DNA of 35,797 nt. Origin: a virus (lineage: Duplodnaviria > Heunggongvirae > Uroviricota > Caudoviricetes). Both the position numbers and the translations under genes were made by a program. Under the pieces are notes generated by a model that was not told where the DNA came from, ran no database searches, and saw only the letters and a program-made list of their open reading frames with translations. This document shows positions 1 through 16,911 of the stretch, in pieces; positions within the stretch are counted from its first letter, which is position 1; every line of letters begins with the position of its first letter. The stretch is taken from IMG/VR virus record IMGVR_UViG_2563366950_000001, one strand, 5' to 3'.

Positions 1-1032
1 TCAAAAAATTCCTATTGATGTTGGTAGTGTTGCCAGCGGATTAAACCGTAATGCAGTTTCCAGGTGATCCGGTGCCAGATGTGCGTAACGCATAGTCATT
101 TTTATGTCGTGATGTCCGAGGATTTTTTGCAAAGCAAGGATATTTCCACCCGACATCATGAAATGCGCTGCAAACGTATGGCGCAGAACGTGTGTCAGTT
201 GACCGCGAGGGAGCACGATAGACGTTTTTTCCATCACGGATAAAAATTGAAAATAGCAGTCTGTAAAGAAATTGAACCCATCAAGCGCCATGATCTCTTC
301 GTAAAGCTCTTTACTGATAGGGATGCTTCTGTTTTTCTTCCCCTTCGTTCTTACAAAGGTAATTCGGTATTTGGTCACTTGCGAGCGGGTAAGATTTATT
401 GCTTCTCGCCAGCGTGCGCCTGTGCTTAGGCATATCTTGACTACCAGTGCCAGAATTGGGTCCTGACGTTTGCAATCAGCCAGCAGTTCAACAATCTGCT
501 CATGGGTAAGCCATGCCATCTCTTTTTCTGCGATGGTGAATTTTCGCATGTTCTCCAGTGGGTTCGGATACGACCATTCGCCCAGGCGGGATAGTTCGCT
601 AAAAACACTACTTAGATAGCTTTGCTCCAGGTTAATGGTGACCGGGCTTGCTCCTTTCTTCCATTTCTCGCTGAAGTAGATCTCACCTGTCAGGCGTTTA
701 TCTCGATAGTGGGCAAACATTTTAGAGGTTAGATCAGTTGCAAGGGGATTGCCCAGAGCGTCAACCATCAGCAGCAATTTGTCATAGACATGCTGCCCAG
801 CAGTCAGTGATTTACCATGTAGTTTGAACCATAGCTCAACCACGTCTTTCAGTGTTCGACGATCCACTGATTCACCCAGCCAGGGCTTTGCTTCGGTTTC
901 TTCCATCGTGTGACGCTCAAAAGCCAGTGCTTCGCCTTTGGTGGCGAATTGTTTACGCACACGACGCCCACTACGTCCGGCGGGGTAACATTCGCAAAGC
1001 CATTTTCCTGTGGTGAGTTTTCGTACAGCCAT
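1..1032 (-). CDS. int: P2/186-family tyrosine integrase (site-specific recombinase)
   Basis: 343-aa ORF ending exactly at window start. The C-terminal region carries the tyrosine-recombinase signature (HVLRHTFA...HHDIKMTMRYAHL). It sits at the prophage end next to the repressor, as in P2/186. Confidence 0.93.
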   Translation of the reverse strand: MAVRKLTTGKWLCECYPAGRSGRRVRKQFATKGEALAFERHTMEETEAKPWLGESVDRRTLKDVVELWFKLHGKSLTAGQHVYDKLLLMVDALGNPLATDLTSKMFAHYRDKRLTGEIYFSEKWKKGASPVTINLEQSYLSSVFSELSRLGEWSYPNPLENMRKFTIAEKEMAWLTHEQIVELLADCKRQDPILALVVKICLSTGARWREAINLTRSQVTKYRITFVRTKGKKNRSIPISKELYEEIMALDGFNFFTDCYFQFLSVMEKTSIVLPRGQLTHVLRHTFAAHFMMSGGNILALQKILGHHDIKMTMRYAHLAPDHLETALRFNPLATLPTSIGIF

Positions 1033-1118: not shown

Positions 1119-2090
1119 TTAATCGGAGGATTTTTCTGAATGAGAAGGTTTGATTTTTTCTTTCGCGGTAGACCATAGCGTTTGGAAACTTGGCGGATAA
1201 TCCATTTGATCAGAAAAAGCAGAATCTCCAGACATGTTCCAGTCCTTAAATACCTGAATAGCATCTTCTTTGGTCGCAGTCGAACCGTAAATTTGTAGGA
1301 AGACTTGACCAAACATTAAGGCATGCCTTCTGTCTTTTCTGCGAATGGACTCATGAGTATACTTTTTGGAGATACTCAGACAGATATAAGAAAGCCATGA
1401 TAAAATGGAAATTCCAATCAGGCCTCTGGTGAATAGATAAAATAGTTCAAATCCTTTAGCATTTATGAAATCAGTAACAAAATATAATGATATGAACGAA
1501 AAAATGACAGCGGAAAGACCGGCTATTGCACCAGCAATAGCCCATGTTTTGGCGAGTGAAATAAAGTGATCATCATCATCACCTAAATCATCTTTTACAC
1601 TATTGACATATTCGGGAATTTTTTGATCAATTCTCTCTTGATGTGCTCGACTGGTTAATTCGTTATTTGAAGCCTCTAACTCTTTTATCCTAGAAAAAGT
1701 TTGCTCAAGTAAAGATTCTTTTTCTATGTTTAAATTTTCTAACTCTTTGTTTTTTAATGATAATGAGGTGTTGCTTTCTTGCAAATCAGATAAGCGAGCT
1801 GTATAAAAACGTAATAAGTTTCTGAATTCATTATTATCTTTTTTTAACACGTTAAGTTGTAATTCAATATCTTCGTCGCTAAAGCCGACTCTATCTAAGT
1901 TTTGGAGATGGCGTCTATATTGATCCTTGAATTCTTCAATTTCACCATTTTTCAACAAGTTCTTTAGATATGTGCGTTCATGTTCAGGAAGTGGAATAGA
2001 ATCATCATGTATAAAATCAACGTATTTTTTAAACTCTGATTTGGTGATGCTGTTTTGTATTGTTTCTTTTTTGTGTTCTTTAGAGTCCAT
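1119..2090 (-). CDS. hypothetical cargo protein: N-terminal coiled-coil domain, acidic linker, two predicted transmembrane helices, short C-terminal tail
   Basis: 323-aa ORF, visibly AT-rich. Heptad-like, charged N-terminal half (KNKELENLNIEKESLLEQ...), then DDLGDDDDH, then hydrophobic stretches WAIAGAIAGLSAVIFSFISLYFV and LIGISILSWLSYICLSI. Same strand as the repressor, 12 bp downstream of its stop codon. I recognise no family. Confidence 0.7.
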   Translation of the reverse strand: MDSKEHKKETIQNSITKSEFKKYVDFIHDDSIPLPEHERTYLKNLLKNGEIEEFKDQYRRHLQNLDRVGFSDEDIELQLNVLKKDNNEFRNLLRFYTARLSDLQESNTSLSLKNKELENLNIEKESLLEQTFSRIKELEASNNELTSRAHQERIDQKIPEYVNSVKDDLGDDDDHFISLAKTWAIAGAIAGLSAVIFSFISLYFVTDFINAKGFELFYLFTRGLIGISILSWLSYICLSISKKYTHESIRRKDRRHALMFGQVFLQIYGSTATKEDAIQVFKDWNMSGDSAFSDQMDYPPSFQTLWSTAKEKIKPSHSEKSSD

Positions 2091-2102: not shown

Positions 2103-3029
2103 TTAAATGTTTTTAATGAAAGCACAGTGGCATTTTGCTAAAAGTTTTATATTCTCAATGTCACATATGAAATCAGCATGAGTAGATATTACTTTAACTT
2201 TTCCTACGGGTATGCGGACCAATGTTCTAATGTTTATTTTGCCTTCAATTTCTACTAACCATTCACCATCAGATATTTCTTTATATCCATAGTCTACTAC
2301 GAAAACATTTTCGCTATCGATCACAACCTGCGGATTTATAAGGTTGTGTGGTATTAAAGATTTATCAAAGTGGATATAGTCCGCATCTATTAACTTACCA
2401 TTTATTAGCTTATATGCTAATAACTTTGCTACATCAGTATTTACATCGTTCGATTTTGAGCCTTTTCCAGTAACGAGCCAATCTAGTGATATACCAGTTT
2501 CAAGTGCGCATTGGATAATCCAATCGGCTGGAAATGTATCCCTCATATAACGATTAGCTAGTGTGCTTTTTGAAATACCCAAATGATCAGCTAAAGCTTG
2601 TCTTGTCTTAAATCCATAGGCTGCAACGATTCGCTCTATTGCTGCTTTTCCGTTTTGATTTATAGTAACAGTGTTCTCATTTGGGTTTTTAGGTTCTCTG
2701 TTGAGGTGCCGAGATTCACTGTTACAATTGTCGTGACTTTTATCTGCAAAGCTTTCCATTTCGGTATCAGTACCAAATGCTAACCACTCAATCGATACAC
2801 CAGTTTCCATACTACAGATAACAACCCAGTCAGCTGGGAAAGTGTCACGCGCATACCTGTTCGCCATTGTGCTCTGTGATATCCCCAGATGATTGCAGAA
2901 TGCTTGGCGTGAAGAAAAACCATACGCTTCTAATATCCGCTCGATGACTGCTTGCCCTCCGCGATTCTGCATGATTAAGGATTTCTTTTTTTCGTCCACA
3001 TGGCGAAATGTGATTTCGTGTGTTGACAT
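2103..3029 (-). CDS. CI-type immunity repressor with tandemly duplicated N-terminal helix-turn-helix domain plus C-terminal domain
   Basis: 308-aa ORF divergent from the early operon. Two internally repeated ~60-aa segments (RILEAYGFSSRQAFCNHLGISQSTMANRYARDTFPADWVVICSMETGVSIEWL and RIVAAYGFKTRQALADHLGISKSTLANRYMRDTFPADWIIQCALETGISLDWL) resemble the 186 CI N-terminal HTH fold. Its position is that of the lysogeny repressor. Confidence 0.75.
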   Translation of the reverse strand: MSTHEITFRHVDEKKKSLIMQNRGGQAVIERILEAYGFSSRQAFCNHLGISQSTMANRYARDTFPADWVVICSMETGVSIEWLAFGTDTEMESFADKSHDNCNSESRHLNREPKNPNENTVTINQNGKAAIERIVAAYGFKTRQALADHLGISKSTLANRYMRDTFPADWIIQCALETGISLDWLVTGKGSKSNDVNTDVAKLLAYKLINGKLIDADYIHFDKSLIPHNLINPQVVIDSENVFVVDYGYKEISDGEWLVEIEGKINIRTLVRIPVGKVKVISTHADFICDIENIKLLAKCHCAFIKNI

Positions 3030-3371: not shown

Positions 3372-3881
3372 ATGTTTGATTACCAAGTTTCCAAACATCC
3401 ACATTTTGATGAAGCCTGTCGTGCATTCGCACTGCGCCACAACCTGGTGCAACTGGCAGAACGTGCAGGCATGAATGTGCAGATTCTGCGGAACAAGCTG
3501 AACCCAGCTCAACCTCATTTATTAACCGCACCAGAAATCTGGTTGCTTACCGATCTGACTGAAGATTCAACGCTAGTAGATGGTTTTCTGGCTCAGATTC
3601 ACTGCCTGCCATGCGTACCGATTAATGAGGTGGCAAAAGAGAAACTGCCACATTACGTCATGAGTGCAACCGCAGAGATCGGGCGTGTTGCAGCAGGTGC
3701 GGTATCTGGCGATGTAAAAACCAGTGCAGGTCGTCGTGATGCTATCAGCAGCATTAACTCTGTAACACGACTGATGGCGCTGGCCGCTGTTTCATTGCAG
3801 GCTCGTTTACAGGCTAATCCTGCGATGGCGAGTGCAGTTGATACCGTGACTGGCCTCGGTGCTTCATTCGGTTTGCTGTGA
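3372..3881 (+). CDS. cII: CII-type lysogeny-establishment activator (186 CII-like)
   Basis: From internal ATG at 3372 the product starts [45 protein letters not shown]..., matching my recollection of 186 CII; ~169 aa. Confidence 0.8.
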
Positions 3882-4695: not shown

Positions 4696-4922
4696 TGGCT
4701 GATGCAATGGATCTCGTACAGCAGCGCGTTGAAGAAGAACGCCAGCGTCATATCCGTACTGCCCGCGCCAAAACGCCGGGCGTGTCCCGCGTGCTTTGCA
4801 TTGAGTGTGAAGCACCAATTCCGCCAGCACGACGTCGCGCCATTCCGGGTGTGCAGCTTTGCATTACCTGTCAGGAAATCGCAGAGCTGAAAGGCAAACA
4901 TTACAACGGAGGTGCTGTATGA
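4695..4922 (+). CDS. TraR/DksA-family C4 zinc-finger protein
   Basis: 75 aa with CxxC...CxxC (CIECEAP...CITCQE), the typical phage TraR-like zinc finger; translationally coupled to neighbours. Confidence 0.75.
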   Translation: MADAMDLVQQRVEEERQRHIRTARAKTPGVSRVLCIECEAPIPPARRRAIPGVQLCITCQEIAELKGKHYNGGAV

Positions 4923-5776
4923 GCACCATCCTGAAATGGGCGGGTAATAAAACCGCCATTATGCCAGAACTGAAAAAATACCTTCCTGCTGGCCCGCGAC
5001 TGGTTGAACCTTTCGCGGGTTCTTGTGCTGTGATGATAGAGACGGATTACCCCAGCTATCTTGTTGCGGATATCAATCCTGATTTAATCAACCTCTATAA
5101 AAAGGTTGCTGCTGATTGCGAGGCGTTTATATCTCGTGCCAGAGCTTTATTTGAGGAAGCAAACAGGGAGGTGGCTTATTACAACATAAGGCAGGAGTTT
5201 AATTACTCCACTGAAATTACTGATTTCATGAAAGCGGTATATTTCCTGTATCTCAATCGTCATGGTTACCGTGGGTTATGTCGCTATAACAAGAGCGGGC
5301 ATTTCAACATTCCCTATGGGAATTATAAAAATCCGTATTTCCCTGAAAAAGAAATTCGCAAATTTGCAGAAAAAGCCCAGCGAGCAACGTTTATCTGCGC
5401 CAGCTTTGATGAAACGCTGGCGATGTTGAAGGCGGGGGATGTGGTGTATTGCGATCCGCCTTATTACGGTACGTTTTCCGGCTATCACACTGATGGCTTC
5501 ACTGAGGATGACCAGTATCACCTGGCATCCGTTCTTGAACATCGATCATCTGAAGGTCATCCGGTCATTGTTTCTAACAGTGACACATCCCTGATTCGTT
5601 CGCTGTATCGCAATTTCACTCACCACTACATCAAGGCAAAACGCAGCATCGGCGTGTCGGCTGGCGAGAGTAAATCTGCAACAGAAATCATTGCTGTTTC
5701 CGGGGCGCGCTGCTGGGTGGGATTTGATCCTTCGCGTGGCGTAGATAGTTCTGCTGTGTACGAGGTGCGTGTATGA
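4919..5776 (+). CDS. dam: DNA adenine methyltransferase (Dam-like, N6-adenine)
   Basis: Starts [11 protein letters not shown] at the ATG overlapping the upstream stop. Contains the DPPY catalytic motif (CDPPYYGTF) and an N-terminal AdoMet-binding region (EPFAGSCAV). Confidence 0.85.
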
Positions 5777-8187
5777 GTCATGACGATATGAGCAACTCTA
5801 GCGGCTTTAACGAGGCCGCCGCATCATTTTCATGGAACGGCCCGAAAAAGGCCATTAACCCTTATCTGGACCCGGCGGAAGTTGCGCCGGAGTCTGCACT
5901 TTCAAACCTGATCACTCTGTATGCTGCCGATAACGAGCAGGAACAACTGCGCCGCGAGGCACTGAGTGAGCAGGTCTGGGAGCGTTATTTCTTTAATGAA
6001 TCCCGTGATCCTGTCCAGCGCGAAATGGAGCAGGATAAGCTCATTAGCCGGGCAAAGCTGGCGCATGAGCAGCAGCGTTTTAATCCAGACATGGTCATTC
6101 TGGCTGACGTCAACGCCCAGCCTTCCCATATCAGCAAGCCGCTGATGCAACGTATTGAATACTTCAGCAGCCTGGGCAGGCCAAAGGCTTATTCCCGCTA
6201 TTTGCGTGAGACGATTAAGCCATGTCTGGAACGGCTGGAGCATATACGCGACAGTCAGCTATCCACTTCTTTTCGCTTTATGGCGAGCCATGAAGGGCTG
6301 GACGGCCTGCTGATCCTGCCTGAAATGAGTCAGGAGCAGGTGAAACGCCTGTCCACCCTGGTAGCTGCGCATATGAGCATGTGCCTTGATGCAGCTTGTG
6401 GCGATTTGTATGCCACCGATGACGTTAAGCCAGAAGAAATCCGCAAGACATGGGAAAGGGTGGCAGCAGAAACCCTGCGACTGGATGTCATCCCACCTGC
6501 GTTTGAGCAACTCCGCCGGAAAAGAAACCGCCGTAAACCCGTGCCCTATGAACTCATTCCGGGTTCGCTGGCGCGTATGTTGTGTGCCGACTGGTGGTAC
6601 CGGAAATTATGGAAGATGCGTTGCGAATGGCGGGAAGAGCAGTTGCGCGCTGTCTGCCTGGTCAGCAAAAAAGCATCTCCCTATGTCAGCTATGAAGCCG
6701 TGATGCATAAACGTGAGCAGCGCCGTAAGTCGCTGGAGTTTTTTCGTTCTCATGAACTGGTGAACGAAGACGGCGACACGCTGGATATGGAAGACGTGGT
6801 AAACGCCAGCAGCAGCAACCCTGCACATCGCCGCAATGAGATGATGGCCTGTGTTAAAGGTCTGGAGCTTATCGCGGAAATGCGCGGTGACTGCGCCGTT
6901 TTCTACACCATCACCTGTCCGTCACGTTTCCATTCCACGCTCAATAACGGCAGACCAAACCCAACCTGGACAAATGCGACGGTAAGACAAAGCAGCGATT
7001 ATCTGGTCGGCATGTTTGCTGCATTTCGTAAGGCGATGCACAAAGCCGGGTTGCGCTGGTATGGCGTGCGGGTGGCTGAGCCGCATCATGACGGTACGGT
7101 TCACTGGCACCTGTTGTGTTTCATGCGCAAAAAAGACCGCCGTGCCATTACTGCATTGTTGTGTAAGTTTGCCATCCGTGAAGACCGCGAGGAACTGGGT
7201 AATAACACTGGTCCACGCTTTAAATCTGAGCTGATAAACCCGCGCAAAGGAACACCGACAAGCTACATCGCGAAATACATTAGTAAGAACATTGACGGGC
7301 GTGGTCTGGCTGGCGAGATCAGCAAGGAAACGGGTAAATCCCTGCGTGATAACGCTGAATACGTTAATGCCTGGGCGTCTCTGCATCGTGTTCAGCAATT
7401 CCGCTTCTTTGGTATTCCGGGGCGTCAGGCTTACCGTGAACTGCGATTGCTGGCTGGTCAGGCGGCAAGGCAACAGGGCGACAAAAAAGCAGGTGCGCCG
7501 GTACTGGATAACCCGCGCCTTGATGCCATCCTGGCTGCTGCTGATGCTGGTTGTTTTGCCACTTACATCATGAAGCAGGGTGGCGTACTGGTTCCCCGCA
7601 AATATCACCTCATCAGAACTGCTTATGAAATTAACGAAGAGCCGACCGCCTATGGCGATCACGGCATTCGTATTTATGGCATCTGGTCACCCATTGCAGA
7701 GGGCAAGATCTGCACTCATGCAGTGAAGTGGAAAATGGTTCGTAAAGCCGTTGACGTTCAGGAGGCGGTAGCCGACCAGGGCGCTTGCGCCCCTTGGACT
7801 CGTGGCAATAACTGTCCCCTTGCTGAAAATTTGAACCAACAAGCGAAAGACAAATCAGCTGATGGGGATACCAGAACGGACATCACCCGCATGGATGACA
7901 AGGAGTTGCACGATTACCTGCACAGCATGAGCAAGAAAGAGCGCCGGGAACTAGCAGCAAGGTTACGCCTGGTGAAACCGAAACGGCGTAAAGACTACAA
8001 ACAGCGAATTACAGACCATCAGCGACAGCAGCTCGTCTATGAACTGAAGTCCAGAGGATTTGATGGCAGCGAGAAAGAGGTCGATTTACTCCTTCGCGGC
8101 GGCAGTATTCCGTCAGGAGCAGGCCTGCGTATCTTCTATCGGAACCAGCGTCTGCAGGAGGATGATAAATGGCGGAACCTGTATTAA
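5773..8187 (+). CDS. A: replication initiation protein gpA (rolling-circle nicking endonuclease)
   Basis: 804-aa ORF. Contains an HxH-type metal motif (TVHWHLLCF) and the tyrosine-containing segment YIAKYISKN, as in P2 A. Confidence 0.9.
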
Positions 8188-8256
8188 TTACGCGGGTTAA
8201 CAATTCGTGCTCTTAATAATAACTGGCATATCAGGCTGATGAACGTAAAAAAACGT

Positions 8257-8297
8257 TTTACATCAGTAAGATTATTATATACTGTAAATATAAACAG
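8257..8297 (+). promoter_or_regulatory. putative sigma70 promoter (TTTACA ... TATACT) overlapped by a LexA/SOS box (CTGTAAATATAAACAG, 8282-8297)
   Basis: Perfect CTGT-N8-ACAG with an AT-rich spacer, flanked as tACTGT...ACAGtg (consensus TACTGTATATATATACAGTA). Lies in the gap after gene A, upstream of the small ORF and the DinI-like gene. Confidence 0.55.
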
Positions 8298-8340
8298 TGG
8301 TTATAAACACAGTATTCCGAGTGGTGTTATAGGAGGAAAG

Positions 8341-8529
8341 ATGCAGGACTATTTTTTGGAGTCTTTGAAGCTCCAGCGCATTGATTTTTTTCTTAAGCTT
8401 GTAGCGGCTAGTGAGTGTAGTGATGAAGAGAAGGGGCTGGCTTTGCAGTGGGTATCTGAACTGACTGATGAACTCATGGCAAAAATCAGAACCCACGAAT
8501 ACAACCGCTCAATGGATGTCATCAGTTGA
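8341..8529 (+). CDS. small hypothetical protein (first gene of the putative SOS-controlled operon)
   Basis: 62 aa from the ATG at 8341, which is preceded by AGGAGG; the longer ORF-track start at 8239 lacks an RBS and would overlap the LexA box. Confidence 0.4.
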   Translation: MQDYFLESLKLQRIDFFLKLVAASECSDEEKGLALQWVSELTDELMAKIRTHEYNRSMDVIS

Positions 8530-8539
8530 GGTGACTTTT

Positions 8540-8773
8540 ATGCGCATTGAAATAATGATCGATAAAGAGCAGAAGATTAGTCAGTCTACCCTGGACGCCC
8601 TTGAAAACGAGCTTTACCGCAATCTGCGCCCCCTGTATCCCAAAACGGTAATTCGTATCCGCAAAGGTAGCTCTAACGGTGTGGAACTGACCGGGCTGCA
8701 ACTGGACGAAGAAAGAAAACAAGTGATGAAAATTATGCAGAAGGTGTGGGAAGACGACAGCTGGTTACATTAG
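8540..8773 (+). CDS. DinI-family protein (Tum-like antirepressor module candidate)
   Basis: 77 aa from the ATG at 8540, after a GAGGTG RBS. Size and the acidic C-terminus (MKIMQKVWEDDSWLH) are typical of DinI-like proteins. Confidence 0.75.
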   Translation: MRIEIMIDKEQKISQSTLDALENELYRNLRPLYPKTVIRIRKGSSNGVELTGLQLDEERKQVMKIMQKVWEDDSWLH

Positions 8774-8993
8774 GGAACGTTGCGGACGATAAAACTGGTT
8801 TTTACCGTTCGCAAGGTTGAGCAACGAGCCGTGCGAGGCGTTAGTTATGGATAAATTGGTTGCAGGGTGATATGTAAATAGGTTAATACGTAGCACTCTT
8901 CGAATAGTTTCGTATTTTTGTTGTCCTATAATCATAAGATGACAGCCTCCATGCACCACAATCCGTGGCGTTTGAGGCATAAAGGAGGAAAAT

Positions 8994-9194
8994 ATGTCTG
9001 AACTTCTGCGCAAAGTTCTCTCTGCACCAGGTAAGATTATGCAGGATGTCATCCGTCAGGATGTGCAACAGTCTGATAATAGTAAAATTATCACAGATGC
9101 TAATGGTGCGGCGACCTTAAACATGAACAATAAGCAGGTACGTGAATCAATGCGTGCCAGAATGGAAGAATTGGCTGCAAAACGACAAGGATGA
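8994..9194 (+). CDS. small hypothetical protein (66 aa), first gene of a two-gene cargo operon
   Basis: Strong RBS AAGGAGG 6 nt upstream of ATG. Stop at 9192-9194 lies 3 bp before the next start. Confidence 0.55.
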   Translation: MSELLRKVLSAPGKIMQDVIRQDVQQSDNSKIITDANGAATLNMNNKQVRESMRARMEELAAKRQG

Positions 9195-9197
9195 GGA

Positions 9198-9980
9198 ATG
9201 GGACCCTTAGTTATCATGGTCGTCCTGGTTTGCGGGTTCTGGTACACCGAAAATCATTACCAGTCCCGCATCAGGCAAGCAAGAAGTAATGGTTGGAATT
9301 CCTATTTTTATGTAGCTATGCATGGTTGTAAGTTTGCTATTCAGGGGTTTACTCTGATGGCTGTTACATTCGTTATCTTGCTAGTTATAAGCTCAGTTAT
9401 CAATGTTTTTGGTTATTTTTGGCCTAAGTTACATGTGGACTTTTATTCATGGCTCACAGACGTAAAGATAATGTCTTACCCATTGTTCTTTGTGTTGTCT
9501 ATGCTGCTTGCGGTGTTTATTGCTTATGACCAAGGTAACAATGCGCGAAGAGCAATAGAAAACGAAGAGATTCGTCAATCTGCATATCGCGAGATGGCAG
9601 CTCAAGATGGAATTGAGTCACTGTTAGTTCAGGCTATAGATGAAGGTAAGCTCATCTTTGTTACGCTAAAATCCAGAAAAGTTTACATTGGTTACGTAGC
9701 TGCTCCTCGGATGGAGCATCAGGAAACTCAGCATCTGGCTCTCATACCATACATCAGTGGTTATCGTGATAAAGATACGCTCAGATACCATGAGCAGCAT
9801 CGTTACTATGAACTTTACCTTAGTAAAAATATTACAGCAGACTCAACTCCACTGAACTTAAATCATTTTAGGCATGTAATCCCAATGGATCAGGTTGAGA
9901 GTATTTCAATATTTGATACTGAAACTTATAAATCTTTCGAAGATTTTTCTACGCCTGACCAGACCAAAGTCACTGCATGA
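9198..9980 (+). CDS. hypothetical membrane protein (3 predicted N-terminal TM helices plus ~150-aa soluble C-terminal domain)
   Basis: 260-aa ORF, AT-rich. Hydrophobic segments LVIMVVLVCGFWY, LMAVTFVILLVISSVINVFGYFW and LFFVLSMLLAVFIAY. Translationally coupled to the upstream small ORF. Confidence 0.7.
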   Translation: MGPLVIMVVLVCGFWYTENHYQSRIRQARSNGWNSYFYVAMHGCKFAIQGFTLMAVTFVILLVISSVINVFGYFWPKLHVDFYSWLTDVKIMSYPLFFVLSMLLAVFIAYDQGNNARRAIENEEIRQSAYREMAAQDGIESLLVQAIDEGKLIFVTLKSRKVYIGYVAAPRMEHQETQHLALIPYISGYRDKDTLRYHEQHRYYELYLSKNITADSTPLNLNHFRHVIPMDQVESISIFDTETYKSFEDFSTPDQTKVTA

Positions 9981-10028
9981 CTATGCCGCATGAATATGCA
10001 TGATCGTTTGAGGATCGTTTTTGCTGAG

Positions 10029-10054
10029 GCCCGCCAGTTCTGGTGGGCTTTTGC
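10029..10054 (+). terminator. rho-independent terminator candidate downstream of the 260-aa gene
   Basis: GCCCGCCAG-ttc-TGGTGGGC hairpin (one G-U pair) followed by TTTTGC. Confidence 0.45.
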
Positions 10055-10097
10055 TTATGTCATGCACCTGCATGAAAATCGCTACAAAAAGCGGGCA

Positions 10098-10116
10098 GGC
10101 GTGGCGGGGATACGAG
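10098..10116. other. probable cos site (cohesive-end region) of the P2/186-type genome
   Basis: GGCGTGGCGGGGATACGAG followed by GCGCGCGC resembles the 19-nt cohesive ends I recall for P2 (GGCGAGGCGGGGAAAGCAC) and 186. It lies in a non-coding gap upstream of the portal end of the late region. Confidence 0.4.
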
Positions 10117-10199
10117 CGCGCGCAACTCGAGATAGTGTGATACTTATCTGAGAAATCTTAACAAGGTTCAATACAATACCCTTTCAAAAAAAGGGGAGT

Positions 10200-11354
10200 G
10201 TGATGTTTGTAAAAAATAACTTTAATACAAATAATTTCGATGCGGAATTAGTTGAAGCGATTGGTAATAGGCTGGAAAACAACCAATTTTCGGATGCAAT
10301 ACTTGCAGGAACCAAATATCTAACAACTTTGCTGCGTGAAAAAGGGCAATGTGAAGGGGATGGGGCTCAGCTTGTTGGTACTGTTTTGGGTGGACAATCA
10401 CCTAGAATCCAAATTAATAGTCTTCAATCTGTATCAGAGCAGGACGAACAGCGCGGATTTGAAGCACTATTAAGAGGCTACTATCAGTGTATAAGAAATC
10501 CAAGGACACATGACAATTTCCCTGATACAGAAGATTCCTGCATGAGAATATTGATCATGTTGGATACTTTTATTAAGTATTTAAAAAGAGATGTTGCTGA
10601 GTTCGATTACACAGCAATTCTTGAAAGAATTTATGAGGTTCACTTTGTAAATAATTCTGATTATGCAGAAGCTTTAATATCACAAATTCCAGAAAAAAAA
10701 CTACTGGATTTTTTCCAAAGTTTAATTTCTCGCTTTAATGAAAGGCCAACCAAGGAAATTGATTCTATATTCAAAGCAATAAACCAACGCTTTTCAGGAG
10801 AGGAAGAAAAAGCCGCAATGCGGTTGCTAGGTGATGAGTTACGCAAGGCTAGCAATAATGTTGAGTTTGCTAATGTATTTAGAATAATTAAGCCGAGCGC
10901 ATGGAGAAATCTTCCTGATGATGTTTTAATTAGAATGGAAAATATAATCATCGAAGAGTGCAAAAAAGGATATTTGGATTTCTATTCTGATGCGACCAAA
11001 GGAGCTATAGGAACATGGGGTAATACATTTGGTAGCAAATTTAAAAGAAGAGGTGATCTTGGTGATGCTTTAATTGGATTGTTATATGATAGTTGGTATA
11101 CGCAAAATTATGTTGCGAAATATTACGTTTTTTCAATCCCTTCTATCATTACTGATGATGTGAAAGTTAAGGAGTTAGCTGATGCTTTAGCTTATGCCAC
11201 CATTGTAAATGGTGCTAAGCTTTTACGAACAAAATTGATTGATGCATGTAAAAATTATCCTGATAAGTTGAAAGAGCATCTTAGGGATGCTGTTCAGCAA
11301 CGGATGGATAGTGATAAAAAATATGCGGAAGAATTATTAGGTCAAATAAGCTGA
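10200..11354 (+). CDS. hypothetical protein with HEPN-like N-terminal domain (Rx4H motif); candidate abortive-infection RNase
   Basis: 384-aa ORF, strongly AT-rich, GGGGAG RBS. N-terminal domain contains CIRNPRTHDNFPD (Rx4H), which I associate with HEPN/TIGR02391-like families. C-terminal ~250 aa unrecognised. Confidence 0.7.
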   Translation: MMFVKNNFNTNNFDAELVEAIGNRLENNQFSDAILAGTKYLTTLLREKGQCEGDGAQLVGTVLGGQSPRIQINSLQSVSEQDEQRGFEALLRGYYQCIRNPRTHDNFPDTEDSCMRILIMLDTFIKYLKRDVAEFDYTAILERIYEVHFVNNSDYAEALISQIPEKKLLDFFQSLISRFNERPTKEIDSIFKAINQRFSGEEEKAAMRLLGDELRKASNNVEFANVFRIIKPSAWRNLPDDVLIRMENIIIEECKKGYLDFYSDATKGAIGTWGNTFGSKFKRRGDLGDALIGLLYDSWYTQNYVAKYYVFSIPSIITDDVKVKELADALAYATIVNGAKLLRTKLIDACKNYPDKLKEHLRDAVQQRMDSDKKYAEELLGQIS

Positions 11355-11405
11355 TTATTATTTGCACCTAATCTCACTTTCGATGTTAGGTGCATTTCTA
11401 TATGC

Positions 11406-12443
11406 CTAATCTAATTCATATGAGGTAAATTTAACCAGTTCTTCATTAAGTCCAATCCATGAGTTAATTTCAGATATTCTGTGTTGTAGCGGAATTAACT
11501 CATTCCTGACAAAAACCTTACTAGCCTTTTCAACATCCCCAAACCCGCCAACATTACTAGGCATAATCCCCATCATCTGCGGCGGTACACGGTGCGCTGC
11601 CATCATGTCATCCCGGCTCACGTTCTTGATGTTCAGAAACTCATCTTTTGCCGCCACCTCTGACAGCGGGATGATCTGAATCCCGTCTTTCTTTCCGTTG
11701 GGTGAGTACATAAACAAGTTGCGGAAGTTGCCCGGCCCTTTGGCGCTTTTCATCGCATTGCGGAGGTTGTTCACATCCTCCTGGTTCTGCGCGGCATCGG
11801 TCATGTACATGATGAAGCCTGCATGACTACCGTTAATGTAATATTTGCGGCGGAACAGCGTGGCGGACTCGTTGAGCAAAGCGGATGGGATGGCAGAAAG
11901 ATAGCCGGGCAGGCCGTAGATCTCCTGATTAATATCTGGTTCCATCAGATGAAAAATGCTGCCTTTCGTGAACTGATACGGCTGGGTTGTCATACCGTAT
12001 TGCACAAACCAGTAGGTATCCAGGTCTAACCCGCGTCGGGTATATTTTGCCAGGGCAGGCTCAAGGGCGATAACTTCACCGAAGCGGTTCGTGCGTTTCT
12101 CCAGGTAGGCGTTACCAAATACCAGGTAGTCCTGCACAAAACGTGAAAAAGCCTGCTGGCTGAGCAGCGGGTGAGGGATATAGGTACTGGTCAGAATGTT
12201 GCACTTTACTGCAATCGGGGAACTGTGATGCACGGCAGCGCGGAAGGTGCGCGCCAGTCCGTCAAAGCTGACGGGCGGCTCATACCAACGGTCCATCTGT
12301 ACGCATTCCACATAGTCCAGTAATTCTCGGCGGTCCAGAACAGGAACGGGATCGCCGAAGCTGAATGCTTCGGCTGTAGTTTGACTTTTAAGCTGGATCT
12401 GATTCGTCGCCGCAGCGCGGTTCTTCTTACTCTTTCCCATCAA
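11406..12443 (-). CDS. Q: portal protein gpQ
   Basis: 345 aa, the same size and position as P2 Q; overlaps the terminase gene start (Q-P operon). Confidence 0.93.
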   Translation of the reverse strand: MMGKSKKNRAAATNQIQLKSQTTAEAFSFGDPVPVLDRRELLDYVECVQMDRWYEPPVSFDGLARTFRAAVHHSSPIAVKCNILTSTYIPHPLLSQQAFSRFVQDYLVFGNAYLEKRTNRFGEVIALEPALAKYTRRGLDLDTYWFVQYGMTTQPYQFTKGSIFHLMEPDINQEIYGLPGYLSAIPSALLNESATLFRRKYYINGSHAGFIMYMTDAAQNQEDVNNLRNAMKSAKGPGNFRNLFMYSPNGKKDGIQIIPLSEVAAKDEFLNIKNVSRDDMMAAHRVPPQMMGIMPSNVGGFGDVEKASKVFVRNELIPLQHRISEINSWIGLNEELVKFTSYELD

Positions 12444-14206
12444 AAAATCTCCACAATATTGCTGGTATTGGCGGATTCACCCTGCAGCGGTTCGTTAAAC
12501 AGTGCGTGCATCGTTGCCCAGGCCAGATCGGCGTGGCTGGCTTCTTCGCTGCGGCTGGCTTCATAGGTCGGGCGGTTGCCACTGGCGGTGGTGGCGCGAC
12601 GGATTGCCATGAATGACTGCGCAATGTCGGTGTGCCCGGCGTCAAACTCCAGACGGCGGTGGCTGATAATGTCGTAGGCCTTGAGTACCAGGGCGTTTTT
12701 AACGTTGAGGTTGTAGACAAACTCCCGGACGGCAGGAAAGAACGCTTTCACGTTCTCATAAACCCCGTGACCAACGCCGGTTGAGTCGATGCCGATATAG
12801 GTCACGTTGTACTGTTCGGTCAGTTTTTTGATGGCGTCAGCCTGGGCGCGAAAGTCCATCCCGCGCCACTGGTGACGCTCAAGAATGCGGAACTTGCCGC
12901 CCGGCACGGCTGGCGGTGCCACCACCACGCATCCGGCACTGTCGCCGTTCTGCGTACCTTTCGCCGGGTCATAACCGATCCACACTTCGCGCCAGCCAAA
13001 TGGGCGCAGTGCCAGTGCATGAAAGTCGGTCCAGACTTCCCAGCTGTCCACCATGCACGCCTGCAGCTCGCTGAGTGGGAACACGGACGCGAGATCGTCC
13101 ACAAACTCGCACATCAGCAGGTTCTGGTATTCGTCCGGGCTGTACTCCATGCGCAACTGGTCAAGGTCGAACAGGTTACAGCCGCCGCGCACCGCATCTT
13201 CCACGGTGACTATCTGGCGGTATTGCCCGTCGGCGCACAGCTGGCCGGGGGCCAGATTGTTGTGGGACAGGTCGATGTCCACCTTATCGGCTTTGTTACG
13301 CCCACGGTTGAACAGCGCACCGGACCAGAACGGATAAGCACTGTGTGTCAGGCTGGATGGCGTGGAAAAATAGGTTTGTCGCCATTTTTTGTGAATAGCC
13401 ATACCGGAAGCCACTTTGCGCAGCTCCTGGAATTTCGGTATCCAGAAATATTCATCCAGATACAGGTTGCCGTGGTAACTCTGGGCCGTGCGGGCATTGG
13501 TGCCGAGGAAGTAAAGCGTGGCTCCGTTAGGAAGCACCATCGGATCGCCTTTCAGCTCCACCTCGACTTCTTTGGCGAAGTCGATGATGTACTGCTTAAA
13601 GACGTGAGCCTGTGCCTTACTGGCAGAAAGGAAAATCTGGTTACGTCCGGTAAGCAGGGCGTCAATCAGGGCTTCACGGGCAAAGTAAAAGGTCGCGCCG
13701 ATCTGGCGTGACTTCAGCAGGTTGCGGATGCGGTTGGTTTTTCCGGCTTCCCACCAGTGGCGCTGGTAGTTGAACATGGAGGAATGGAAGATTTCTTCCA
13801 GCTTCTCAATCTGTTCATCGGTGAAGACATTCTTTTCCGGCTGACGGCGCGGGCCCTTGTTGCGGTTGGCGACGTTAGGATTTAAGTCGGCTTCGTTGCC
13901 GCCATTGTTAAACTTGCCGATCCGCGCGTGGCGTTCCGACTGGCGCGCCAGCAGGTCAATCTCTTTGAAATCTTTCCCTTCTTTGTGCTCCTTCATAATG
14001 AGCTGGCAGTAGCGTGCGGCGGTGGTGAGCTGCATCTGATCCAGCGGCCCATAGTCACCCCACTTGTCGCGTTTTTTCCAGCTGTGAACGGTTGCAACTT
14101 TCTCGCCCAGCATTTCAGCAATGCGGGCGACGCGGTATCCCTGAAAGTACAGCAGCATGGCCTGCCGACGGGGATCGAGATCTGCGGGTGTCAGTGTGGT
14201 GTTCAT
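12440..14206 (-). CDS. P: terminase large (ATPase) subunit gpP
   Basis: 588-aa ORF, co-oriented with the portal gene and divergent from the O-N-M-L operon, as in P2. Confidence 0.93.
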   Translation of the reverse strand: MNTTLTPADLDPRRQAMLLYFQGYRVARIAEMLGEKVATVHSWKKRDKWGDYGPLDQMQLTTAARYCQLIMKEHKEGKDFKEIDLLARQSERHARIGKFNNGGNEADLNPNVANRNKGPRRQPEKNVFTDEQIEKLEEIFHSSMFNYQRHWWEAGKTNRIRNLLKSRQIGATFYFAREALIDALLTGRNQIFLSASKAQAHVFKQYIIDFAKEVEVELKGDPMVLPNGATLYFLGTNARTAQSYHGNLYLDEYFWIPKFQELRKVASGMAIHKKWRQTYFSTPSSLTHSAYPFWSGALFNRGRNKADKVDIDLSHNNLAPGQLCADGQYRQIVTVEDAVRGGCNLFDLDQLRMEYSPDEYQNLLMCEFVDDLASVFPLSELQACMVDSWEVWTDFHALALRPFGWREVWIGYDPAKGTQNGDSAGCVVVAPPAVPGGKFRILERHQWRGMDFRAQADAIKKLTEQYNVTYIGIDSTGVGHGVYENVKAFFPAVREFVYNLNVKNALVLKAYDIISHRRLEFDAGHTDIAQSFMAIRRATTASGNRPTYEASRSEEASHADLAWATMHALFNEPLQGESANTSNIVEIF

Positions 14207-16260: not shown

Positions 16261-16911
16261 ATGAGCCTGAGTCCAGCACGGCAGCATCGCCTGCGCGTTC
16301 AGGCTGAACAGGCCGCCCGCGAGGGCGGCAGTGTTCGCCACGCGTCGGGCTATGACCTGATGCTGCTGCAACTGGCGGAAGACCGCCGCCGTCTCAAGGG
16401 CGTTCAGTCCACGGTCAAAAAAGCGGAAATCAAGGTGGAGCTGCTGCCGAAGTACGCCGCCTGGGCGGAGGGCGTCCTGGCTGCCGGAGGCGCTCAACAG
16501 GATGACGTGCTGATGTACGTGATGCTGTGGCGCATTGATGCCGGAGATTATGCCGGGGCGCTGGAGATCGGGCGTCATGCCCTGCGTCATGGCTGGGTGA
16601 TGCCGCTGGGTAACCGCAACGTGCAGACCGTGCTGGCAGAGGAAATGGCAGATGCAGCGCAGAGCGCAATGCTTGCCACTACCGGCTTTGATGTCGATCT
16701 GCTGCTGCAGACGCTGGAGCTGACAGACGGTCTGGATATGCCGGACCAGTCACGGGCGCGTCTGCATAAAGCGATTGGCGCTGTCCTGAGTGAAAGTAAT
16801 CCGGCTTCCGCCCTTAATCATCTCAACCATGCGTTACAGCTCGATCCCCGCTGTGGCGTGAAAAAAGACAAACAGCAGCTGGAGCGCAGACTACGCAATG
16901 ACAGCCGCTGA
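16261..16911 (+). CDS. M: terminase small (endonuclease) subunit gpM
   Basis: 216 aa, immediately after N in the O-N-M-L operon. Confidence 0.88.
   Translation: MSLSPARQHRLRVQAEQAAREGGSVRHASGYDLMLLQLAEDRRRLKGVQSTVKKAEIKVELLPKYAAWAEGVLAAGGAQQDDVLMYVMLWRIDAGDYAGALEIGRHALRHGWVMPLGNRNVQTVLAEEMADAAQSAMLATTGFDVDLLLQTLELTDGLDMPDQSRARLHKAIGAVLSESNPASALNHLNHALQLDPRCGVKKDKQQLERRLRNDSR

Follow-up and report, generated by a model that had tools for sequence, protein, structure and literature searches.

A probable cos site between two exchangeable cargo slots in the P2-like prophage φb0847 of Escherichia coli CFT073

Introduction

Among phages of the P2 family, the records of 186, P2 and PSP3 annotate 19 bases as the cohesive end, and the 186 record places the top-strand cut at the 5' end of these bases and the bottom-strand cut at their 3' end. 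The P4 record carries no annotated cos feature, and its left end was used for comparison here. A 55-bp cos core of P2 and P4 goes back to Ziermann and Calendar (1990), as cited in PMC5694545. In P2 and 186, only about 170 bp and a terminator separate cos from the portal gene Q, and cargo genes (old/tin/orf91, orf97) are found to the left of cos only, whereas P4 carries cargo only to its right.

Cargo between cos and Q has been described in other phages. In φCTX, the ctx toxin gene lies between cosL and the convergent Q gene, and in the Ralstonia phages φRSY1 and φRSX an accessory gene occupies the same place. The accessory gene of φCTX and φRSY1 has its own promoter and terminator and sits between the left cohesive end and the convergent portal gene. 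The cosL-Q position has been proposed as a hotspot, with citation of Dodd and Egan (1996) and Nakayama (1999), in PMC5694545. Rousset et al. (2022; PMC9122126) described the gpA-gpQ region of P2 as a hotspot of accessory and defence genes "adjacent to the cos site", catalogued 18,150 loci in Table S5A and speculated that exchange might occur via free cohesive ends; the GpA-GpQ hotspot was confirmed in thousands of P2-like prophages by de Sousa et al. (2026).

Two further elements bear directly on the DNA studied here. The first is φb0847. In the account of Wiles et al. (2013; PMC3573123) this prophage is P2-like, intact, 33 kb long and likely to be fully functional, with a "moron position 1" in the A-Q interval and a "moron position 2" in the G-FI interval. 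The second is the Salmonella phage SEN8 (KT630647.2; Felsduovirus), whose cos was "identified by annotation" from a tagmentation library prepared from CsCl-purified particles (PMC5427200).

Results and Discussion

The window is prophage φb0847 of E. coli CFT073

The window, that is, the whole stretch of 35,797 nucleotides analysed here, is prophage φb0847 of E. coli CFT073, a member of the P2 family, and its positions 8200-11400 are 100% identical to CFT073 (NC_004431.1, 917531-920731). The same locus appears as row 1 of Table S5A in PMC9122126, where NC_004431 is listed with WP_001154434, WP_001217564, WP_001292590, WP_000529102 and WP_000497736. Reading from gpA, the order is DinI, cargo, cos, cargo, Q and P, which is the order found in P2 and 186 (Table 1), and cos is placed, as in those phages, between the accessory genes on the gpA side and the portal gene. 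The cII gene lies between cI and the Dam methylase gene. All of the genes that were checked (int, cI, cII, gpA, gpQ, gpP, gpM and ogr) are present and full-length, and the other ORFs follow the P2 late-gene order; the ORFs flanking gpM (scaffold O and capsid N) and the tail genes were assigned by their position in that order.

Table 1. Features of the window, with coordinates, strand and the observations attached to each.
Feature	Position	Strand	Remarks
Integrase	1-1032	-	
cI	2103-3029	-	
Replication gene A (gpA)	5773-8187		
DinI/Tum-like gene, conserved left boundary of the left slot	8540-8773	+	Pfam DinI, E = 7e-23; about 97-99% identity in most related loci
Left cargo 1, 66 aa, WP_001292590	8994-9194	+	phrog_22451, E = 1e-43, family with no assigned function; 43% GC
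Left cargo 2, 260 aa, WP_000529102	9198-9980	+	phrog_3630, E = 7e-90, family with no assigned function; 40% GC
Conserved cos island, 150 bp	9974-10123	.	124 bp left of the top-strand cut, 19 nt, and 7 bp (CGCGCGC) to the right; from 73 relatives
GCATGA box 1 (-123)	9975-9980	+	-122 in P2; nearly invariant in 73 relatives
GCATGA box 2 (-110)	9988-9993	+	same position in all five phages; 72/73 relatives
GCATGA box 3 (-100)	9998-10003	+	same position in all five phages; 72/73 relatives
GC-rich inverted repeat, then T-run	10026-10051	+	-22.8 kcal/mol as RNA, z = -3.55; 0/200 shuffles as good
55-bp cos core equivalent	10069-10123	+	41/55 P2, 43/55 186, 43/55 P4, 52/55 SEN8
GCATGA box 4 (-28), left edge of the 55-bp core	10070-10075	+	all five phages; 73/73 relatives
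Predicted 19-nt 5' cohesive-end sequence	10098-10116	+	homology to 186 and P2/P4; identity to SEN8 positions 1-19
Right cargo, 383 aa, TIGR02391/Hypoth_Ymh (HEPN-type), WP_000497736	10203-11354	+	Pfam PF09509; 35% GC
Hairpin between the convergent right cargo gene and Q	11363-11392	.	-16.4 kcal/mol, z = -3.8
Portal gpQ, right boundary of the variable region	11406-12443	-	Pfam Phage_portal; annotated as phage portal protein in CFT073
Terminase large subunit gpP, enzyme expected to cut at cos	12440-14206	-	Pfam Terminase_6N, Terminase_6C, Terminase_5
Terminase small subunit gpM, expected recognition subunit for the island	16261-16911	+	Pfam Phage_term_smal, E = 2e-40
ogr	32691-32942		
Host transporter gene	33178-34863	-	

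A homologue of the P2 and 186 cos sites

The sequence-only reading had proposed that a 19-mer and the GC-rich stretch behind it resembled the cohesive ends of P2 and 186, that they lay in a 219-bp non-coding gap and that the site was probably cos. The 19-mer, GGCGTGGCGGGGATACGAG, lies on the plus strand at 10098-10116, is present as a single copy in the window even when three mismatches are allowed, and occurred in none of 100 shuffles. It is directly followed on its 3' side by CGCGCGC (10117-10123). The gap was confirmed at 9981-10199, the left ORF stopping at 9980 and the right one beginning at 10200 with GTG or, in the PGAP annotation, at 10203 with ATG, which extends the gap from 219 to 222 bp.

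For comparison with the known sites, the two ends of each of the P2, 186, P4 and SEN8 records were joined and set against the window without gaps, anchored at the cut. The 19-mer matched 186 at 15/19 positions and both P2 and P4 at 14/19. Overhang bases 1-13 are those of 186, and the differences fall at bases 14, 16, 17 and 19 (ATACGAG in the window versus AAAGCAT/C in 186, P2 and P4). The flanks are shared as well: to the left of the 19 bases, the window and the reference phages have AAGCGGGC(A/G), and to the right (C/T)GCGCGC, the right flank matching at 6-7 of 7 bases. We then considered the 55-bp core, taken as -29 to +26 from the cut, the stretch over which P2 and P4 match each other at 52/55. 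The resemblance claimed earlier was borne out by this alignment, the core of the window matching P2, 186 and P4 at 41-43/55, far above the next-best ungapped match to any core on either strand of the whole window (28-30/55); the core match is thus unique.

A match of 15/19 would on its own be only marginally improbable in a 36-kb window (about 0.1 expected, by our own estimate), and a GC-rich 19-mer might in principle resemble the P2 and 186 cos by chance. We regard the likelihood of this as practically negligible, since the match extends over 55 bp at a level that is reached nowhere else in the window (at most 30/55), conserved boxes stand in register 100-123 bp away, the genomic position is the correct one, and BLAST searches against phage records gave E-values down to 1e-55.

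The closest counterpart is the cos of SEN8. Its record opens with the identical 19-mer (positions 1-19, labelled "putative cos site") and closes at the base equivalent to position 10097 of the window; the identity continues through the following CGCGCGCA, the core matches at 52/55, and the left arm carries the same boxes and a palindrome. In a search of phage records for ends at this site, SEN8 was the only one found to end there. The SEN8 cos was assigned during annotation and is therefore not an independent physical mapping of the ends. Cargo flanks cos on both sides in SEN8 also, with one gene on the left and two genes between cos and the portal gene, but the host and the cargo genes are other than those of the window, and SEN8 has been shown to form plaques, φb0847 being known as a prophage only.

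Register with the annotated ends of P2, 186 and PSP3, genomic position and identity to SEN8 all speak for the proposal that the site is cos, and by homology 10098-10116 is very probably the cos of the Fels-2/SEN8-type P2-family prophage φb0847 of E. coli CFT073. The top-strand cut is predicted at 10097/10098 and the bottom-strand cut at 10116/10117, both positions being taken over from the 186 annotation. Over its final six bases the 19-mer departs from the mapped ends of P2 and 186 at four to five positions, and for this reason the overhang length and the bottom-strand cut are extrapolated.

The site belongs to a sharply bounded conserved island

To delimit the conserved sequence, we used 80 viral contigs whose portal protein is 92-100% identical to that of the window. 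The core motif is present exactly once downstream of Q in 75 of them. In 71 of these 75 loci the 19-mer is identical to that of the window, and the other four differ at the last base only. When 73 distinct sequences were aligned at the cut, the per-base identity to the window was about 0.85-1.0 within 9974-10123 and dropped abruptly outside both edges to about 0.1-0.5, the random level. On the right, the boundary obtained in this way is also that of the P2/P4 core. The sharpness of both edges across the 73 relatives indicates that the functional unit is this 150-bp island, which has a GC content of 54%. Immediately before the predicted cuts stand the heptamers GCGGGCA (top strand, 66/73 relatives) and GCGCGCG (bottom strand, 54/73), and their rough two-fold symmetry would account for the retention of exactly 7 bp on the right side.

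The left arm of the island contains GCAT(G) boxes at four offsets from the cut that are common, within one base in P2, to the window, SEN8, 186, P2 and P4 (Table 1), and these boxes would be the sites bound by gpM. The stop codon of the 260-aa ORF (TGA, 9978-9980) falls inside the first box, so that the left cargo abuts the island exactly, and the last 7 bases of this ORF come from conserved phage sequence. Between the third and fourth boxes lies the inverted repeat of 10026-10051; a GC-rich palindrome of different sequence occurs at the same offset in SEN8, 186 and P4. Variation within the repeat among the relatives is commonest at the loop, and minority variants also alter stem bases of the 5' arm. 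The repeat could be a terminator for the rightward DinI-cargo transcript, a protein-binding palindrome, or both. It does not correspond to the 186 terminator t95b, which lies at -189 to -162 and hence outside the island. The second hairpin, between the right cargo gene and Q, is possibly a bidirectional terminator; in P2 and 186, a terminator (tQ/tW) is annotated at the corresponding point behind Q/W. A scan of 8700-11500 for promoter and terminator consensus sequences gave counts at or below the shuffle expectation, and a weak -35/-10 pair at 10148-10177, upstream of the right cargo gene, was not counted as evidence.

The strong hairpin and T-run at 10026-10051 could suggest that the block is conserved mainly as a transcription signal, as terminator of the DinI operon or promoter of the right cargo, rather than as a packaging site. 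A terminator may coexist with cos, and it would leave the 55-bp core unexplained; moreover, the most conserved part of the block is the 19-mer with its flanks, which aligns to mapped cos ends. A second version of this alternative is that a gene is conserved here. A 53-aa ORF spans cos (9990-10151, plus strand), matches phrog_28685 and carries a "hypothetical protein" annotation in several records of phages and E. coli. This ORF stops after 22 aa in 37 of the 73 relatives, runs past the edge of the island into unconserved DNA, and shows divergences of 0.13, 0.12 and 0.11 at the three codon positions among these relatives. Since divergence is equal across codon positions and the frame is broken in 37/73, the conservation of the island is not coding, and the ORF is almost certainly a spurious call over it. 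Taken in both versions, a transcription signal or gene in place of a packaging site is very improbable.

Occurrence of the island in phages and E. coli genomes

The island was matched in about 98 records of phages from Klebsiella, Yersinia, Escherichia and Salmonella. Of 5426 complete E. coli genomes, 1250 contain it, almost always without an annotation. Among the viral contigs searched, 119 loci carry the exact 33-mer around cos: 113 are P2-like, 5 are too short to classify and one has two inverted copies. No P4-like satellite with this cos variant was found among these 119 loci, and psu, sid, delta and alpha were absent from all of them.

Three loci stood apart. The one with two copies (IMGVR_UViG_3300011853_000021) contains two inverted DinI-cos-Q arrangements, with cos at 3440-3472 (minus strand) and 6697-6729 (plus strand); the copies are 92% and 81% identical, face each other and have no gpA between them. 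The likeliest explanations are a chimera, assembled through the conserved region, and a pair of truncated prophages. The second is p13TMH22-1 (NZ_CP019257.1, 1-3719), recorded as a circular "plasmid" of 36,172 bp from an E. coli isolated from urine, which is the genome of a P2-like phage. The cos island in it is 100% identical to that of the window, a TIR-domain gene occupies the cos-Q slot, and many phage genes are marked as frameshifted; it may be an episomal or excised phage that was assembled as a plasmid. The third (NZ_CP060748.1, 1219611-1229674) is a degraded relative in which an IS66-family element cuts off the left 86 bp of the island and head genes have been lost through IS1 and deletions, an example of a dead cos remnant.

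Proposed packaging mechanism and state of the prophage

By analogy with P2, 186 and P4, gpM would recognise the asymmetric left arm of the island through the four fixed GCATG boxes (-123, -110, -100 and -28) and the GC-rich palindrome. The gpP subunit would then cut the two strands at staggered positions, the top one behind GCGGGCA and the bottom one behind GCGCGCG, producing 5' overhangs of 19 nt, and the excised and circularised genome would be packaged as a linear molecule. Cleavage, overhang length, the pairing of proteins with motifs and the activity of the prophage are inferred.

The site might also be a true cos homologue that has become a relic, in a prophage that is domesticated or defective and no longer packages DNA. 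No in vivo transfer of φb0847 sequences was detectable in the study of Wiles et al. (PMC3573123), related degraded prophages with an IS-truncated island exist, as described above, and we found no evidence of φb0847 induction or particle formation. The same study nevertheless considers the prophage likely to be fully functional. The island is intact in the window and matches those of functional relatives, including plaque-forming SEN8; gpM, gpP and gpQ are full-length, as are int, cI, cII, gpA and ogr, within a P2 late-gene order; and a circular record of 36 kb carries an identical island. These data make a relic improbable.

Cargo genes on the two sides of cos

The sequence-only reading had also placed cargo genes on both sides of the site. 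This proved correct, as AT-rich genes flank the island and are replaced by unrelated DNA in otherwise near-identical phages. The span 8994-9980 that it gave for the left cargo holds as well, except that it is made of two ORFs instead of a single unit (Table 1). The GC content of the three cargo genes is 43%, 40% and 35%, versus 50-57% for gpA, Q and P. Variable gene content and low cargo GC, both marks of the gpA-gpQ hotspot, were observed at this locus.

On the left, the 260-aa protein has a hydrophobic N-terminal half, with segments at about residues 43-114, and its homologues (33-99% identity) fill the same slot in relatives. The 66-aa ORF co-occurs with the closer of these homologues (about 69-100% identity) in the related loci examined. 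No annotated domain was found in the left cargo, and searches with the 260-aa protein against Pfam, PADLOC, NCBIfam and the PDB gave no match. On the right, the 383-aa protein matches PF09509 over residues 12-126 (E = 3e-23; 82.4 bits, cut-off 25) and NCBIfam TIGR02391 (44.8 bits, cut-off 39.45), and in PADLOC it matches PD-Lambda-3_B (E = 2e-14) and the Argonaute-associated Aga_HEPN (E = 2e-9). An RNPRTH (Rx4H) sequence at residue 98 agrees with the Rx4-6H motif of HEPN proteins. The C-terminal stretch of about 250 residues matched no family. Sequence searches of the PDB with both large cargo proteins returned no meaningful match, and a single-sequence AlphaFold model of the right cargo protein (mean pLDDT 56, pTM 0.44) was too poor for a fold search. 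An anti-phage function of the cargo is plausible from its context. Among the supplementary rows of Rousset et al. (PMC9122126) that the search covered, the cargo proteins appear only in the hotspot locus table, and no record of cloning or testing was found there.

We next compared the intervals on the two sides in the related loci. The Q-to-cos interval ranges from 183 to 3524 bp and is at least 500 bp long in 73 of 75 loci. The DinI-to-cos interval, available for the 68 loci in which DinI was located, ranges from 203 to 4507 bp and reaches at least 500 bp in 49 of them; both intervals do so in 48/68, and the left slot is empty in 19. Clustering of the interval sequences gave 22 left and 50 right types ("empty" included), which occur in 62 combinations among the 68 loci; in this lineage the cos-Q slot is therefore the more diverse of the two. 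One and the same right cargo can accompany different left cargoes, and vice versa, showing that the contents of the two sides assort independently. In many E. coli strains the identical TIGR02391 gene is present while the left slot is empty; strain 2018-06-4CC, for example, lacks the CFT073 left cargo. With the predicted cuts, the right end of the packaged molecule would carry DinI, the 66-aa ORF, the 260-aa membrane-protein ORF and cos, and the left end would carry cos, the HEPN-type gene and Q.

Relation to described systems

A cos flanked by swappable cargo is already known as a common arrangement in the P2 family, and the finding is in this respect correct but ordinary. Each of its elements has a precedent, since φb0847, moron position 1, the locus itself, the SEN8 19-mer and cargo between cos and Q have all been described. 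The right cargo of the window is placed like ctx in φCTX and the accessory gene of φRSY1 and φRSX, although hosts, cos sequences (21 nt in φCTX) and cargo functions differ. Two points are not spelled out in the sources cited here, namely where cos lies within the hotspot and that its two sides assort independently. For Rousset et al. (2022) and Wiles et al. (2013), gpA-gpQ is a single locus in which cos is given no place, whereas the sharp-edged 150-bp island allows this hotspot to be divided cleanly into a left and a right slot that exchange their content independently.

The island, as defined by sequence comparison, is also a candidate for the minimal packaging cassette of this phage lineage. 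Its description is of use for annotation: neither CFT073 nor most of the roughly 1250 island-bearing complete E. coli genomes have cos annotated, and several phage records carry a spurious ORF across it. A more far-reaching proposal is that the island is the only homology anchor in the hotspot and creates two mechanistically separate slots at the ends of virion DNA, that free cohesive ends may drive exchange, and that both cargo modules are anti-phage systems, one a HEPN/TIGR02391 protein with a C-terminal domain of about 250 aa and the other the pair of 66-aa and membrane proteins. We put this forward tentatively and consider it rather unlikely as a whole.

Other features of the prophage

An acyltransferase gene (PF01757; 24551-25582, minus strand; 30% GC) lies between the tail-fibre gene G and the sheath gene FI, antisense to the flanking tail genes. 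It is neaT, at moron position 2, which promotes the fitness of CFT073 in bacteraemia (Wiles et al., 2013; PMC3573123). Between the integrase gene and cI, a 323-aa ORF (1119-2090, minus strand; 34% GC) gave a weak, sub-threshold match to DUF2207_C, a membrane-protein family, and has the look of a third site for cargo; de Sousa et al. (2026) mention minor hotspots close to the integrase of P2. The adjacent cI-type repressor ORF (308 aa) contains two separate Phage_CI_repr HTH stretches in addition to the CI C-terminal domain, a pattern due either to an ORF called too long or to duplication of the N-terminal HTH. A gene for a Dam-type N6-adenine methyltransferase (4859-5776, plus strand) lies directly upstream of gene A and overlaps it, and this gene is conserved in the relative vB_EcoM-813R9.
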